Notes: generated by a model not told the origin, from the letters alone. DNA of 64,000 bases from a virus (IMGVR_UViG_2880378312_000006), one strand, 5' to 3'. Shown: positions 26,441 to 35,799, counted from the stretch's first letter. Translations and numbers: made by a program.

Positions 26441-26730
26441 CCTGGCCTGAAGCATTCACAACGGTAGGAATTGCGATGGCGGTGGCGCTGGTGGTGTATT
26501 CGATTTGCCGCTGGGGATAAAAACGGTTTGCGGGAAAAGGATAGTTAAGTAGAATTGCTGCGGGTGCTTGAGGCTATCTGCCTCGGGCATGAACACCAAC
26601 GGCAGATAGAGAAAAGCCCCAGTTAACATTACGCGTCCTGCAAGACGCTTAACATTAATCTGAGGCTCAATCCATGCTGAACACATGTAGGTTAGCCTCT
26701 TACGTGCCGAAAGGCAAGGAGAAGCAGGCT

Positions 26731-26886
26731 ATGAAGCAGCAAAAGGCGATGTTAATCGCCCTGATCGTCATCTGTTTAACCGTCATAGTGACGGCACTGG
26801 TAACGAGGAAAGACCTCTGCGAGGTGCGAATCCGAACCGGTCAGACGGAGGTCGCTGTCTTCGTAGACTACGAATCTGAGAAGTAA
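26731..26886 (+). CDS. hokD: Hok/Gef-family type I toxin, HokD-like, 51 aa
   Basis: MKQQKAMLIALIVICLTVIVTALVTRKDLCEVRIRTGQTEVAVF... matches K-12 HokD (RelF) as I recall it; overlapping mok-like frame from 26674; upstream inverted repeat ggctatctgcc/ggcagatagag and a downstream GC hairpin typical of hok mRNA. Confidence 0.85.
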   Translation: MKQQKAMLIALIVICLTVIVTALVTRKDLCEVRIRTGQTEVAVFVDYESEK

Positions 26887-30287: not shown

Positions 30288-31001
30288 ATGGCTGTTGTCT
30301 GTTCAGTTATCATGGTTTGCTCCCCAATTAATATTTTTCTTGAAAAGGATACGTTGTCACTTAAGCCAGGCTCAGTCGTTCTGGCCACCAAATGCATCAG
30401 GGAGCTTTTCCTTATGCATTATGGCAAAGTTAAAATTGTCGATATAAGCGAATCCGTCGTAAGTCAATATCTGGAAAGTCAGCATAAGCTGACGAGGACT
30501 CGTCTGACTGACATTCCGCTTTACCTGTTGCTGGAACCCAACAATCCTGCGTTGGCTGCGGCTTTAATTACCAGCCAGGGATTTTCCGGAGAGGTCACGG
30601 ATATGTTTCTTATGATGGCCTGCCTGTCTCTGTTTGAAACAGATGAACGGATGTCATTGTTTTTAAGTGGATGTTTATCCAGCATAAGTGCCAAAGTCAG
30701 GGCGATAATTCAGACAGATATATCAGCAAGCTGGACGCTTGGTGCGATTGCTCTACAGTTGCATATGAGTGAGAGTTTGTTAAAGACAAAACTGAAAAAT
30801 GAAGGGGGCATGTTCAGTCGCTTGTTGCTGGAAGAGCGGATGCGTGTTGCTGTAAATATGTTATGTTCCCGGTATGGATATGGACAGGCTGTAGCAGAAA
30901 AATGTGGTTATTCAAGCCGGTCCTACTTTATTTCTGTATTTCACCGCTATTATGGCTTCCCGCCAGACAGATATGTATCCAGGCAAGGGCTTGATTATTG
31001 A
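30288..31001 (+). CDS. AraC/XylS-family transcriptional regulator, 237 aa
   Basis: C-terminal AraC-type HTH (...CGYSSRSYFISVFHRYYGFPPDRY); lies in the Q-dependent late region upstream of the tRNAs. Confidence 0.75.
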   Translation: MAVVCSVIMVCSPINIFLEKDTLSLKPGSVVLATKCIRELFLMHYGKVKIVDISESVVSQYLESQHKLTRTRLTDIPLYLLLEPNNPALAAALITSQGFSGEVTDMFLMMACLSLFETDERMSLFLSGCLSSISAKVRAIIQTDISASWTLGAIALQLHMSESLLKTKLKNEGGMFSRLLLEERMRVAVNMLCSRYGYGQAVAEKCGYSSRSYFISVFHRYYGFPPDRYVSRQGLDY

Positions 31002-31029: not shown

Positions 31030-31105
31030 GGCCCTTTAGCTCAGTGGTGAGAGCGAGCGACTCATAATCGCCAGGTCGCTGGTTCAAATCCAGCAAGGGC
31101 CACCA
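31030..31105 (+). tRNA. ileZ: tRNA with CAU anticodon, ileX/ileZ-like (tRNA-Ile lysidine type, or Met), 76 nt
   Basis: Cloverleaf folded by hand: 7-bp acceptor stem ggccctt/aagggcc, anticodon loop cuCAUaa, T-loop ggttcaaatcc, 3' CCA; near-identical to E. coli ileX from recollection. Confidence 0.85.
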
Positions 31106-31205: not shown

Positions 31206-31282
31206 GCGTTGTTAGCTCAGCCGGACAGAGCAATTGCCTTCTAAGCAATCGGTCAGTGGTTCGACTCCACTACAACGCGCCA
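31206..31282 (+). tRNA. argO: tRNA-Arg (anticodon UCU), 77 nt
   Basis: 7-bp acceptor stem gcgttgt/acaacgc, anticodon stem attgc/gcaat with loop cuUCUaa, T-arm agtgg-ttcgact-ccact, CCA end. Confidence 0.85.
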
Positions 31283-32047: not shown

Positions 32048-32360
32048 TTTTTTTGTTTGCTGTTTATTAAAAACACTTCTGCATGGTGAATCCCCCTGTG
32101 CGGAGGGGCGATCAGCAACCAGGTATATGGGATAATCGCGGATTCAGGTGCTGATACTGAATTCACCGGGAGGCACCCGGCACCATGCTTTGCCACAAAA
32201 GTGTTGTTTCTGTTTTTCTCAAACTATCATCGTTATCCCTTTATTTCCGGCTGCGCATGGCGCGGCTTTTTTTTACGACCAGCCACTGGCAGATGGTCAT
32301 CCTGTGATTTGATTCCGGTTCCGGCTTTTTAACTCTGTTCCTGTACACGGGAGAAATTCG

Positions 32361-34211
32361 ATGTCGATTAAACATTATGATGTTGTCAGGGCGGCGTCGC
32401 CGTCAGACCTTGCGGAAAAGCTGACACACAAACTGAAAGAGGGCTGGCAGCCGTTTGGTAGTCCGGTGGCCATAACCCCTTATACCCTGATGCAGGCGAT
32501 TACAGCAGAAGGTGATGTGGTGGTCAGTGGTGCAACTGAGCCGGATTGGTACTACGTCATCGTACTGGCCGGGCAGTCCAATGCCATGGCTTACGGTGAA
32601 GGGCTTCCGCTGCCGGATTCATACGATGCTCCGGATCCGCGCATTAAACAGCTGGCGCGCCGCAGTACAGTGACGCCGGGTGGGGCTGCCTGCAGATATA
32701 ACGATATTATTCCGGCCGACCACTGCCTGCATGATGTGCAGGATATGAGTACGCTGAATCATCCGAAGGCAGACCTGAGCAAAGGGCAGTACGGCTGTGT
32801 CGGCCAGGGGTTACATATTGCCAAAAAACTGCTCCCGTATATCCCGAATAACGCGGGGATCCTGCTGGTACCATGCTGTCGTGGTGGTTCGGCATTTACC
32901 CAGGGCGCGGAGGGGATATTCAGCGAGTCCACGGGGGCCAGCCAGGATTCGGCGCGCTGGGGTGTGGGTAAACCGTTATATCAGGACCTGATTGCGCGCA
33001 CCAAAGCTGCATTACAGAAGAACCCGAAAAATGTGTTGCTGGCGGTGTGCTGGATGCAGGGAGAGTTTGACATGAGCGCCGCCACCCACGCACAGCAACC
33101 TGCGCTGTTTACAGCCATGCTGACACAGTTTCGTGCTGACCTCTCCGTGTTTAACGCGCAGTGCCATGGTGGCAGTGCTGCAGATGTGCCGTGGATTTGT
33201 GGTGACACGACGTATTACTGGAAAAATACATACGCTACCCAGTACGACACCGTGTACGGCGGGTATAAAAACAGGGAGAGTGAGGGCGTTTATTTTGTGC
33301 CCTTCATGACAGACGGTAACGGCGTCAATACCGCCACTAACGCGCCGGCAGAAGATCCGGATATTCCGGCATCAGGATATTACGGTGCGGCATCGAGAAC
33401 GAATGGAAACCAGGTATCATCAAACCGCCCGACACATTTCAGTTCATGGGCGCGCAGGAGCATTATTCCGGATCGTCTGGCAACCGCTATTCTGAACGCA
33501 GCCGGGCGCACCTCAGCCTTCATCAGTGGTAAGGCACCGGAAATCAAACCCTCGCCCGGCGGCAACACGCCATCGGGTCCGTCTGCAGATACGTCCGTTC
33601 GCACAATCTCCCTGCTGCCGGCAGCCGGAGAGGCTGCTGCGCAGGGCTGGAGCATTAAGGATGGCGGAATTCAGTTGTCAGATGGTGTATTTAAGATCAC
33701 CAGGCAGAGCAATAAAACCTGGTCCCTGACGCATCCGGTGGATGACGCAATTACCCTGCTGACACAGGGCGGCAGACTGACCTGTAAGTTCCGCCTGTCA
33801 GGCGCACTGACCAACAATCAGTTCGGGCTGGGGATTTATCTGTATACGGACGCTCCCGTTCCTGATGGTGTGGCGATGACGGGTACCGGTAATCCGTTCC
33901 TGATGTCGTACTTCACTCAGACCACTGACGGCAGAGTGAATCTGATGCATCACAGGAAAGCCGGAAACACGAAGCTGGGGGAGTTCGGCGATTACGGTAA
34001 CGACTGGCAGACGCTGGAGCTGGTGTTCACCGCCGGCAGTGCCACGGTTACTCCGAAACTGAATGGAGTGGCTGGCCCGGCATTCCAGGTTATAAAAGAC
34101 AGTCTGACACTGGGACTGAATGCGCTGACGCTGACGGATGTTACAAAAAATGCAGCGTATGGCGTTGAGATAGAAAGTCTGATGCTGGAGATAAATGCAC
34201 CGGCAGCATAA
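32361..34211 (+). CDS. nanS-p: Prophage sialate O-acetylesterase NanS-p-like protein, 616 aa
   Basis: N-terminal DUF1737-like region MSIKHYDVVRAASPSDLAEKL and an SGNH/SASA esterase motif (LAGQSNAMAYGEG); position between the tRNA/stx locus and the holin as in Stx phages. Confidence 0.75.
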   Translation: MSIKHYDVVRAASPSDLAEKLTHKLKEGWQPFGSPVAITPYTLMQAITAEGDVVVSGATEPDWYYVIVLAGQSNAMAYGEGLPLPDSYDAPDPRIKQLARRSTVTPGGAACRYNDIIPADHCLHDVQDMSTLNHPKADLSKGQYGCVGQGLHIAKKLLPYIPNNAGILLVPCCRGGSAFTQGAEGIFSESTGASQDSARWGVGKPLYQDLIARTKAALQKNPKNVLLAVCWMQGEFDMSAATHAQQPALFTAMLTQFRADLSVFNAQCHGGSAADVPWICGDTTYYWKNTYATQYDTVYGGYKNRESEGVYFVPFMTDGNGVNTATNAPAEDPDIPASGYYGAASRTNGNQVSSNRPTHFSSWARRSIIPDRLATAILNAAGRTSAFISGKAPEIKPSPGGNTPSGPSADTSVRTISLLPAAGEAAAQGWSIKDGGIQLSDGVFKITRQSNKTWSLTHPVDDAITLLTQGGRLTCKFRLSGALTNNQFGLGIYLYTDAPVPDGVAMTGTGNPFLMSYFTQTTDGRVNLMHHRKAGNTKLGEFGDYGNDWQTLELVFTAGSATVTPKLNGVAGPAFQVIKDSLTLGLNALTLTDVTKNAAYGVEIESLMLEINAPAA

Positions 34212-34219
34212 TAAAAAAA

Positions 34220-34252
34220 GCCAGCGACTGACCTGAAAAAGAAGACGCTGGC
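34220..34252 (+). repeat. Hairpin 1 (gccagcg ... cgctggc) of a tandem diverged repeat unit of about 150 bp
   Basis: Read directly; paired with hairpin 2 at 34370-34402. Confidence 0.6.
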
Positions 34253-34369
34253 TAAAAGGCCTTATATGTTTGTAGAGACTTATTTTTCACAGACAGCAAT
34301 GATGCCTGTCAATATATTATCAATATGCGGATTGTTTCAGTTACAGATGCTTTATTAAGGAAAAAAACA

Positions 34370-34402
34370 GCCAGCACTGACTTTCGGTGGAGAGGTGCTG
34401 GC
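34370..34402 (+). repeat. Hairpin 2 (gccagcac ... gtgctggc) with compensatory substitutions relative to hairpin 1
   Basis: Stem preserved by paired changes (cg to ca with cg to tg); flanking sequence homologous to the hairpin 1 unit. Confidence 0.6.
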
Positions 34403-34578
34403 TCAGAAGGATAGTTGGATTTCACATGATACTTATGCCTGGCGGTATATTTTCTGACAGACAGTGACGGGTGTTGTCAAGATATTGTGTCATTTATAAC
34501 CTGAATCAGGGGGTGGCCGGAATGTTATCTGGCATTTTTAGCAGAGCCTGAATGCCATAATCACGGCTCCCGGCGTTG

Positions 34579-34609
34579 GCCGTCAGTGGGTGACACTGGC
34601 GGCTTTTTT
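34579..34609 (+). terminator. Strong intrinsic terminator about 50 nt upstream of the holin gene
   Basis: gccgtcagtg...cactggcggc hairpin followed by tttttt. Confidence 0.6.
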
Positions 34610-34659
34610 GTTTTTCTTTACTTTCATTTTCTGTCGGCGGTGACGGAGACATACATCAG

Positions 34660-34866
34660 ATGGAAAAAATCACAACAGGTGTGTCATACACCACGTCAGC
34701 GGTGGGGACGGGATACTGGTTACTGCAGCTGCTGGACAAAGTCTCTCCGTCCCAGTGGGTGGCGATAGGCGTGCTGGGGAGTCTGCTGTTTGGGCTGCTG
34801 ACATATCTGACGAACCTGTATTTCAAGATTAAAGAAGACCGGCGTAAGGCGGCGCGGGGAGAGTAA
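34660..34866 (+). CDS. S: Holin, phage 21 S-type pinholin, 68 aa
   Basis: [25 protein letters not shown]...[15 protein letters not shown] closely matches S21. Confidence 0.9.
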
Positions 34867-34867
34867 A

Positions 34868-35215
34868 GTGATGAAGAAAAAATACGAACTGGTTGTTAAA
34901 GGGATAAATAATTACCCGGATAAGATTACTGTTACTGTGGCACCGGAAATTGGTGGGTATCCGTCACTGTTGTTGCCAGATGTGGCGATTAGTCTTGACC
35001 GTACTGAAGGTGCCACGCTGGAGTTTTACGAAGCTGAGGCGAAAAAGCAGGCGAAGCAGTTTTTCATGGATGTTGCTGCCGGGTTATGTGAAGGGGATGG
35101 TCCGTTACCGGAAAAGCGTCCCGTAATTTTAGAGGCGCAGGATGTGTTGATAACCTACAGAGGAAAACTACCGGGAATAATTACGGGTTCTCTGAAGACT
35201 CCACCGCTGGCCTGA
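34868..35215 (+). CDS. Hypothetical soluble protein (115 aa) between holin and endolysin
   Basis: Start 2 nt after the holin stop; no family recognised. Confidence 0.5.
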   Translation: MMKKKYELVVKGINNYPDKITVTVAPEIGGYPSLLLPDVAISLDRTEGATLEFYEAEAKKQAKQFFMDVAAGLCEGDGPLPEKRPVILEAQDVLITYRGKLPGIITGSLKTPPLA

Positions 35216-35265: not shown

Positions 35266-35799
35266 ATGAACGCAAAAATCAGATACGGCCTGTCGGCTGC
35301 CGTTCTGGCGCTGATTGGTGCAGGGGCGTCTGCGCCTGAAATCCTCGACCAGTTTCTGGATGAAAAGGAAGGTAACCACACCACAGCATACCGTGATGGT
35401 GCGGGTATCTGGACCATCTGCCGTGGAGCCACCCGGGGGGATGGTAAGCCTGTTATTCCTGGCATGAAGCTGTCGAAGGAAAAATGCGACCGGGTTAACG
35501 CCATTGAGCGTGATAAGGCGCTGGCATGGGTGGAGAAAAACATCAGAGTGCCGCTGACCGAACCCCAGAAAGCGGGGATCGCGTCATTCTGTCCGTACAA
35601 CATTGGCCCCGGTAAGTGTTTCCCGTCGACGTTTTACAGACGGATTAATGCAGGAGATCGAAAAGGTGCCTGCGAAGCGATTCGCTGGTGGATTAAGGAC
35701 GGTGGCAGGGACTGCCGTATTCGCTCAAATAACTGTTACGGTCAGGTATCCCGTCGTGACCAGGAGAGCGCGCTGGCGTGCTGGGGAATCGACAGATAA
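35266..35799 (+). CDS. R: SAR endolysin (lysozyme, phage 21 R-type), 177 aa
   Basis: N-terminal signal-anchor-release segment (YGLSAAVLALIGAGASAPEIL) followed by a lysozyme-type domain. Confidence 0.85.
   Translation: MNAKIRYGLSAAVLALIGAGASAPEILDQFLDEKEGNHTTAYRDGAGIWTICRGATRGDGKPVIPGMKLSKEKCDRVNAIERDKALAWVEKNIRVPLTEPQKAGIASFCPYNIGPGKCFPSTFYRRINAGDRKGACEAIRWWIKDGGRDCRIRSNNCYGQVSRRDQESALACWGIDR

Follow-up and report, generated by a model that had tools for sequence, protein, structure and literature searches.

The small RNA (sRNA) PasA of EPEC E2348/69 is encoded on the minus strand of NC_011601 between E2348C_0688 (esterase) and E2348C_0689 (holin), with a major form of 85 nt (743499 to 743415) and a minor form of 236 nt (743499 to 743264), its Northern probe being GCCAGCACTGACTTTCGGTGGAGAG (Pearl Mizrahi et al. 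2021, PMC8550237, Table S6). PasA is Hfq-dependent in EPEC, as judged by Northern analysis in Δhfq and by RIL-seq, where it has about 40 partners, and the seed proposed for it, GCCAGCACCU, extends into the 5′ arm of its terminator (PMC8550237, Fig. S5). Table S6 of the same paper also refers to “homologues identified in EHEC (EcOnc51/EcOnc52)”, of which EcOnc52 is an orphan site of Hfq binding, for which a terminator is predicted (Tree et al. 2014, PMC4104026); the literature examined reports neither a Northern nor a mapped 5′ end nor a function for it. A common variant, PasA-2, has the same 3′ end as PasA and a diverged first 40 nt (Zhu, Shabalina & Storz 2026 preprint). According to Zhu et al., pasA copies are not tandem duplicates, and Northern data suggest that the mature PasA 5′ end is cut from a longer transcript.

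Here we analyse the intergenic region between the esterase (nanS-p) and holin genes in a 64,000-nucleotide stretch of viral DNA (IMGVR_UViG_2880378312_000006, referred to as the window), where an earlier note had marked two tandem repeat units. We consider it highly probable that this region comprises two head-to-tail sRNA genes on the minus strand, antisense to the prophage late operon, of which unit 2 belongs to the PasA family and unit 1 is a diverged relative. The evidence consists of identity to the validated PasA locus, the strand and anatomy of the terminators, covariation of the stems and the distribution of the family.

Locus organisation

The two units, each with an A-run, a GC-rich hairpin and a conserved tract, are present between nanS-p and the lysis genes as the earlier note had claimed (Table 1). 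They lie approximately 150–168 bp apart and are both contained in the gap of approximately 450–480 bp between the esterase and holin genes. The esterase gene, annotated in homologous records as encoding a carbohydrate esterase of the SASA family, ends at a stop codon directly next to the terminator of unit 1. Unit 2 is found about 2.17 kb on from the STnc100 (PasD-like) RNA with the esterase gene between them, as in the published synteny. By its position, the STnc100 match represents a PasD/EcOnc13-type prophage sRNA, and the window therefore has the published pasD-esterase-pasA arrangement.

Table 1. Features of the esterase–holin region (positions in the window)
Feature	Position	Strand	Details
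STnc100 (PasD-like) RNA	32052-32224	+	Rfam, 104.7 bits; between tRNA genes and esterase gene
nanS-p-type sialate O-acetylesterase gene	32361..34211	+	616 aa; ORF list; Pfam SASA, DUF1737, DUF6645
PasA target motif	34179..34189	+	CUGAUGCUGGA; 3′ end of esterase mRNA; identical to RIL-seq-derived site of E2348/69 orthologue
Unit 1 predicted sRNA, EcOnc52 type	34213..34278	-	~66 nt; 5′ end estimated to within ~3 nt
Unit 1 Rho-independent terminator	34213..34253	-	8-bp stem AGCCAGCG/CGCUGGCU, 19-nt loop, U7 (34219 to 34213)
Hairpin 1	34219-34226 / 34246-34253 (arms)	+ (as read)	AGCCAGCG/CGCTGGCT; A7 at 34213-34219 before
Unit 1-specific segment			AAGUCUCUACAAACAUAUAAGGCC
Unit 1 promoter-like tract	34282..34312	-	-35 TTGACA (34312 to 34307), 17-bp spacer, weak -10 TGAAAA (34289 to 34284)
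Unit 2 sRNA, PasA-family variant	34361..34445	-	85 nt; coordinates from NC_011601 743499 to 743415 by gap-free alignment
Unit 2 (PasA) Rho-independent terminator	34361..34403	-	9-bp stem AGCCAGCAC/GUGCUGGCU, 17-nt loop, G, U7 (34367 to 34361)
Hairpin 2	34369-34377 / 34395-34403 (arms)	+ (as read)	AGCCAGCAC/GTGCTGGCT; A7 at 34361-34367 before
Unit 2 promoter-like tract	34449..34480	-	-35 TTGACA (34480 to 34475), 17-bp spacer, weak -10 TCAGAA (34457 to 34452)
Terminator-like hairpin with T-run	34578..34614	+	Terminator scan; phage 434 annotation; directly upstream of holin gene
Holin S, class II (P21-type)	34660..34866	+	Pfam Phage_holin_2_1, E = 7e-33

The + strand hairpin directly upstream of the holin gene is outside the repeat units and is conserved in PasA and PasC loci. 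A second + strand terminator-like hairpin with a T-run is seen at 34516-34533, between unit 2 and the holin start. The hairpin at 34578-34614 could end nanS-p or moron transcripts without Q, or alternatively a + strand RNA that converges with PasA might have its 3′ end there. Two small ORFs overlap the region (30 aa, + strand, 34266-34358, and 38 aa, minus strand, 34425-34309), and were set aside because they span the terminator hairpins and the most variable segment.

Among the surrounding genes, an ORF of 237 aa with an AraC-family HTH (+ strand, 30288-31001) ends shortly before tRNA-Met and tRNA-Arg (31030-31105 and 31206-31282), at a location where the gene for the late antiterminator Q might be expected. 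A DUF1327 ORF of 115 aa (+ strand, 34868-35215) is found between the holin gene and the lysozyme gene (35266-35799). Elsewhere in the prophage, Rfam matches were obtained for sok antitoxin RNA (26562-26736, + strand, 113.5 bits) and DicF (19301-19352, minus strand, 76.7 bits).

The repeat units and the strand of their hairpins

The palindrome AGCCAG-N16-28-CTGGCT occurs twice in the 64-kb window, on both occasions at these hairpins, with 0.04 occurrences expected. Both hairpins are much more stable than shuffled sequences (z = -4.60 for unit 1 and -3.25 for unit 2, with none of 200 shuffles as stable). Alignment of the whole units gives z = 8 against dinucleotide shuffles, which falls to z = 1.8 when the hairpins are removed, indicating strong divergence of the units everywhere except in the terminator and the short promoter blocks. 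As judged from this comparison, the two units are real copies, either old or fast-diverging.

Read on the minus strand, unit 1 runs ...UUUUAGCCAGCG-loop-CGCUGGCUUUUUUUAUUAUG and unit 2 runs ...CUGAGCCAGCAC-loop-GUGCUGGCUGUUUUUUUCC, and both have the GC-rich stem, loop and U-run of an intrinsic terminator, with predicted folds of -16.5 kcal/mol (unit 1) and -16.3 kcal/mol (unit 2). The sequences 3′ of the hairpins on the + strand, AAAAGG and CAGAAGG, contain no U-tract. The A-runs that precede the hairpins on the + strand are the complements of the U-tails, so that a hairpin followed by U7 exists on the minus strand only. The terminator scan, which was limited to loops of 3–8 nt, recovered just an inner sub-hairpin of unit 1 (minus strand), since the true loops of 17–19 nt exceed this limit. 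In the curated genome of phage 434, where the region is 96.7% identical, both hairpins are annotated as minus-strand terminators, and a separate + strand terminator is annotated just before S.

The feature described by the earlier note is real and was correctly described, but was put on the wrong strand. Of the functions it had offered, terminators are borne out, although on the minus strand, as is a small RNA. Transcripts are known experimentally at the near-identical E2348/69 locus. The “conserved tract” that it placed after each hairpin is really the promoter-proximal region that precedes each sRNA when the minus strand is read.

Covariation of the terminator stem

The paired changes that had been reported between hairpins 1 and 2 amount to one true double change (G-C vs A-U) and one extra pair, and the proposal of selection on structure finds wider backing in the family. 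In an alignment of 18 distinct hairpins of the family, 93% of cells are paired, with double changes at three pairs; none of 500 shuffles reaches the observed covariation score, and slid registers of the alignment are 24–48% paired. The double substitution C-G to U-A (AGCCAGUAC/GUACUGGCU) is found in at least 11 loci in different contexts, and the double substitution G-C to A-U distinguishes the unit 1/PasC type from the PasA type. The number of independent compensatory events is small (about 2–3), as is usual for a terminator. Variants also carry G-U intermediates, namely U-G in locus L105 and in plasmid pRM10386-2 and, in PasC, U-G at the ninth pair; on the + strand, each of these would become an A-C mismatch. 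The loops are 14–19 nt across variants and differ in both length and sequence. When applied to eleven full-length variants, RNAalifold predicts this helix alone, with no structure in the 5′ body.

Two readings offered by the earlier note can be weighed on this evidence. If the hairpins acted on the + strand, they would be tandem terminators or attenuators gating read-through from nanS-p into the lysis cassette. Their location in the nanS-p to S intergenic region is in keeping with this, and a + strand RNA can form the same stems, but the lack of a U-tract after either hairpin on that strand, the G-U pairs of the variants and the presence of a separate canonical + strand terminator with a T-run (34578-34614) make it very improbable. 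The inverted repeats might instead be protein-binding palindromes at the DNA level, such as operators or recombination sites, for which their perfect 8–9 bp arms and the conservation of the outer 7 bp could be cited. We give this reading the lowest probability of all, as the spacers (17–19 bp in the window) range from 14 to 19 nt and vary in sequence across variants, the conservation is compensatory and not symmetric and is coupled to obligatory U-tails, as fits RNA terminators, and RNAs ending there have been observed experimentally at the homologous locus (PMC8550237).

Unit 2 is a PasA-type sRNA

The pasA intergenic region of E2348/69 PP2 matches the window at nearly every base, and the alignment is free of indels throughout the two units. 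The reported PasA ends 743499, 743415 and 743264 map to window positions 34445, 34361 and 34210, respectively; 34361 is the end of the unit 2 U-tail, and 34210 is just past the U-tail of unit 1, inside the esterase stop codon. The PasA Northern probe matches the window exactly at 34370-34394, and the seed is found on the minus strand at 34393-34402. In addition to the probe and seed matches of unit 2, the locus has the position of the PasA/PasC family, being antisense between a SASA esterase and the holin and lysozyme genes with a PasD/STnc100-like RNA upstream, and both units carry the 3′ stem-loop with poly-U on the sRNA strand (8–9 bp stems followed by U7). The esterase mRNA also retains the target motif of Table 1, which is listed for PasA as “E2348C_0688 ... 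GAUAGAAAGU CUGAUGCUGGA GAUAAAUGCA” (PMC8550237 supplement).

Compared with PasA of E2348/69, unit 2 is identical over the 3′ 43 nt and differs at 11 of 42 positions in the 5′ body; it is probably of the PasA-2 type. In EHEC Sakai, the EcOnc51 peak (Sp12, 2237479-2237555) covers the 3′ half of unit 2 and its terminator. A discrete, Hfq-stabilised RNA of about 80 nt is known from the near-identical E2348/69 locus (Northern, RNA-seq and RIL-seq) and from Sakai CRAC (PMC8550237; PMC4104026). For the window itself, expression, Hfq dependence and RNA partners are carried over from these near-identical loci and are to be read as predictions. Rfam has no PasA model and gave no relevant match at gathering score at the repeat units; at E <= 10, only chance snoRNA-like matches were obtained in 34100-34700.

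Promoter-like tracts

Upstream of each sRNA on the minus strand is a shared tract, TTGACA-N10-CTGTCTGT-N2/3-AAAAT, with only two matches in the window, a count that is not independent evidence as the pattern was derived from these two copies. The weak -10 of unit 1 sits within TGTGAAAAAT, while that of unit 2 is separated by 6 nt from the 5′ end reported for PasA, and the 5′ ends of PasA and PasC, as seen in RNA-seq coverage, fall at the same aligned position. In unit 1, the -35 to -10 tract has no substitutions over 31 positions in three diverged copies that have 4–5 substitutions over 28 positions of the body. In unit 2, the tract from -35 to -1 has 1–4 substitutions over 35 positions across variants, and the body 5–12 over 42. 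The tract is 2–4 times less divergent than the body in both units, and divergence begins right at the mapped 5′ end, as expected for a conserved promoter driving a diversifying sRNA. Most of this evidence is biased, because the IMG/VR variants were picked by the promoter pattern; the copies chosen independently of it are that of pRM10386-2 and the unit 2 copies of locus L119, Z1323HEC0010 and 2022H048.

From these patterns we infer that the TTGACA tracts may well be active promoters. Their -10 hexamers, TCAGAA and TGAAAA, lack the A2 and T6 that are usual at this element, and neither TTGACA site was called by the promoter scan. No matching sequence was present in the EDL933 Cappable-seq tables.

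Read on the + strand, the same blocks contain promoter-like CAGACA-17-TATATT (34290-34318) and CAGACA-17-GATATT (34456-34484), directed towards the holin gene. These may be promoters in that direction; the only transcript support is one RIL-seq + strand fragment, 743494-743512 (window 34440-34458), which pairs with PasB in EPEC (PMC8550237).

Unit 1 as a paralogue or a tail of PasA

We infer that unit 1 is likely to be transcribed independently. The EcOnc52 Hfq-CRAC peak (Sakai Sp4, 1181998-1182075, minus strand) maps onto unit 1, and its 5′ edge falls 7–10 nt downstream of the unit 1 -10-like element. Sp4 has lost unit 2 through an IS629 that inserted 22 bp before the TTGACA of unit 1. As different prophages have identical copies of unit 1, EcOnc52 reads could be multi-mapped from tandem copies. 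In E2348/69, the unit 1 region has its own entry, “pasA.E2348C_0688.IGR”, which on its own qualifies as an sRNA by the authors' definition and which is RNA2 in all of its chimeras, with a U-tract and five partners; in an escD chimera, RNA2 is 743267-743294 on the minus strand, corresponding to the unit 1 terminator (PMC8550237). For the original authors, unit 1 is the tail of a read-through PasA transcript, the minor isoform of 236 nt (PMC8550237), and the 3′ end of this isoform (743264) does correspond to the unit 1 terminator. The segment equivalent to the seed in the terminator arm is GCCAGCGUC in unit 1 versus GCCAGCACCU in unit 2.

We put at about even the chances that unit 1 is a separately transcribed sRNA of approximately 66 nt, a tandem, diverged paralogue of PasA with its own 5′ body and terminator-arm “seed”. 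As a tandem paralogue with its own promoter, unit 1 would go beyond the published PasA literature examined. A competing possibility, which we regard as doubtful, is that only unit 2 is a gene, and that unit 1 is a decayed duplicate without promoter activity of its own, serving as a back-up terminator or 3′ extension for PasA read-through. Such a view agrees with the designation of 743264 as a “minor” PasA 3′ end and the merging of the unit 1 entry with PasA (PMC8550237), with Zhu et al. not counting unit 1 as a separate pasA copy, with the weak -10 of unit 1 and with the poor alignment of the units outside the terminator (z = 1.8). It is harder to reconcile with the invariance of the -35 to -10 tract (0/31) in diverged copies that have 14–18% substitutions in the body, or with the persistence of unit 1 alone behind four different rearrangement breakpoints, where at least 19 bp upstream of the -35 are kept. 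One of these breakpoints is that of Sakai Sp4, where the EcOnc52 Hfq peak was called, and the 5′ edge of this peak just past the -10-like element also speaks against a mere tail. Separately from this question, the TTGACA...CTGTCTGT...AAAAU tract might be a transcribed 5′ leader with an RNase E-type site in the GAAAAU/AUA stretch, the promoter being located further upstream and the mature sRNAs being processing products. The Northern data of Zhu et al., suggesting that a longer transcript is cleaved to give the PasA 5′ end, point in this direction, as do the reported 5′ end being in an AU-rich single-stranded stretch and the better -10 elements (TATATT, GATAAT) and CTGAAA -35 just upstream in unit 1, the sole minus-strand site from the promoter scan. 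We nonetheless consider a leader unlikely, since in each unit a perfect TTGACA stands exactly 17 bp from a hexamer starting with T, 6 nt before the observed 5′ end, and since, by our own reading of the sequence, unit 2 has only poor counterparts of the upstream candidates in unit 1. A leader would in any case alter only how the 5′ end is made, and not the identity of the locus.

Under the preferred reading of two sRNA genes, each unit would consist of a sigma-70-like promoter (TTGACA, 17-bp spacer and a weak A-rich -10), a short, fast-evolving single-stranded body about 30–45 nt long, and a terminator that would double as the 3′ Hfq-binding module. Unit 2 would be an 85-nt, trans-acting, Hfq-dependent base-pairing regulator of the PasA family, and unit 1 a diverged paralogue of about 66 nt, whose terminator would also catch read-through from unit 2 and so yield the 236-nt minor isoform. 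The two terminators in series would also halt antisense transcription before it reaches the esterase gene. As the proposed seed is part of the stem, any substitution in the 5′ arm has to be matched by one in the 3′ arm, and such co-change would explain the compensatory changes that mark the family types. The stem differences may also alter target specificity.

Distribution and mobility

A scan of IMG/VR with the promoter pattern returned at least 120 loci and at least 54 distinct unit sequences. Among the matches listed, at least 70 or so loci have the tandem pair with a spacing of 167–169 nt, at least about 24 have a single PasC-type unit, at least about nine are single units with a PasA-like terminator abutting the esterase, and in a few unit 1 or unit 2 stands alone behind IS elements or other breakpoints. 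Both units therefore also occur singly in other prophages, showing the modularity of the locus. The region is present in 688 of 5426 complete E. coli genomes (~13%), with a median of five places per genome, and the window is 100% identical to O157:H7 strain 8368. Among species-representative genomes, the scan recovered one real locus, in E. albertii, together with 23 chance matches in unrelated MAGs, and gave no evidence of the family outside Escherichia.

IS629/IS3-family insertions recur at different points in six loci (L004, which is Sakai Sp4, L042, L089, L107, L108 and L081), namely upstream of unit 1, in the unit 2 U-tail, in the unit bodies and in the terminators. This short intergenic region appears to be an insertion hot spot, which makes single-unit or disrupted loci. 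A diverged copy of unit 1, 91% identical, is carried by pRM10386-2 (L153) and similar plasmids of ~80–95 kb in O26 and other strains, where it is accompanied by a 3′ remnant of the esterase gene and adjoins IS600 and IS629 remnants, indicating that the sRNA unit has moved outside prophages.

PasC and the origin of the units

PasC (E2348/69 PP5) is a single unit, without approximately 150 nt of the tandem arrangement. It has a terminator of the unit 1 type (AGCCAGCG...CGCUGGCU-U7) abutting the esterase stop, and a promoter and 5′ body of the unit 2 type. Its loop is 14 nt, compared with 19 nt in unit 1 of the window, and the body of the latter is different from and shorter than that of PasC. 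PasC looks like a hybrid of units 2 and 1, which is not stated in the published papers examined; its layout is what would be expected if the AGCCAGC arms shared by the units of a tandem pair had recombined.

The 5′ part of the unit 2 transcript, AAUAUACCGCCAGGCAUAAGUAUCAUGUGAAA, is similar to the unit 1 promoter module, AATATATTGACAGGCATCATTGCTGTCTGTGAAAAA. A second repeat register is also seen, in which 34435-34454 matches 34302-34321 at a spacing of 133 nt with 80% identity, and with CCGCCA in place of TTGACA. This hints at a nested duplication of a module of about 35 nt.

Implications

The tandem covarying hairpins are best seen as two minus-strand sRNA genes, one of them very probably a copy of a validated Hfq-dependent regulator, in ~13% of complete E. 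coli genomes, mostly EHEC/EPEC. Being absent from Rfam and from RefSeq annotation, the locus will keep being rediscovered. It is in essence already known, as PasA/PasA-2 together with an EcOnc52-type unit; the remaining novelty would lie in unit 1 as an independent tandem paralogue. If unit 1 is a separate sRNA, many EHEC/EPEC prophages carry an unrecognised two-gene sRNA cassette, from which PasC would have been formed by recombination of its two terminators, and the statement that pasA copies never arise by tandem duplication needs revising. If it also regulates by itself, the virulence-associated Hfq network gains a further multicopy prophage sRNA, and unit 1 would be a case of sRNA birth by tandem duplication, promoter retention and co-evolution of terminator and seed.

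Comparison with known systems

Unit 2 resembles PasA/EcOnc51 (Pearl Mizrahi et al. 2021, PMC8550237; Tree et al. 2014, PMC4104026) in its antisense orientation, location in the esterase–holin gap, terminator, seed and 85-nt span, and differs from E2348/69 PasA in the 11 substitutions of the 5′ 42 nt. EcOnc52 of Sakai Sp4 has a promoter tract and body identical to those of unit 1, and the same terminator but for a 2-nt deletion in the loop and one extra C. HnrS, a 66-nt multicopy prophage sRNA (EcOnc10-12), was considered for unit 1 and rejected, as it belongs to a different locus ~3 kb off in Sp12 and its sequence is absent from the window. EcOnc50 and EcOnc15 were likewise rejected for this locus, as they map near tRNAs and stx genes instead.

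AgvB/AsxR (RF02702/RF02703) and the other convergent sRNAs at the PR′ moron site are also short, Hfq-bound and antisense to the late operon, with a variable 5′ region, a conserved 3′ terminator part and multiple paralogous copies per genome. However, they are located between the moron CDS and the esterase, whereas the units of the window follow the esterase, and their sequence is different; the AgvB/AsxR Rfam models (51–60 nt, with a conserved 42-nt 3′ region) have no match in the window at gathering score, nor any in 34100-34700 when E values up to 10 are allowed. By analogy only, the arrangement may be likened to the tandem sRNA genes OmrA/OmrB and PrrF1/PrrF2, in which head-to-tail units each have a promoter, a diverged 5′ region and a related terminator.
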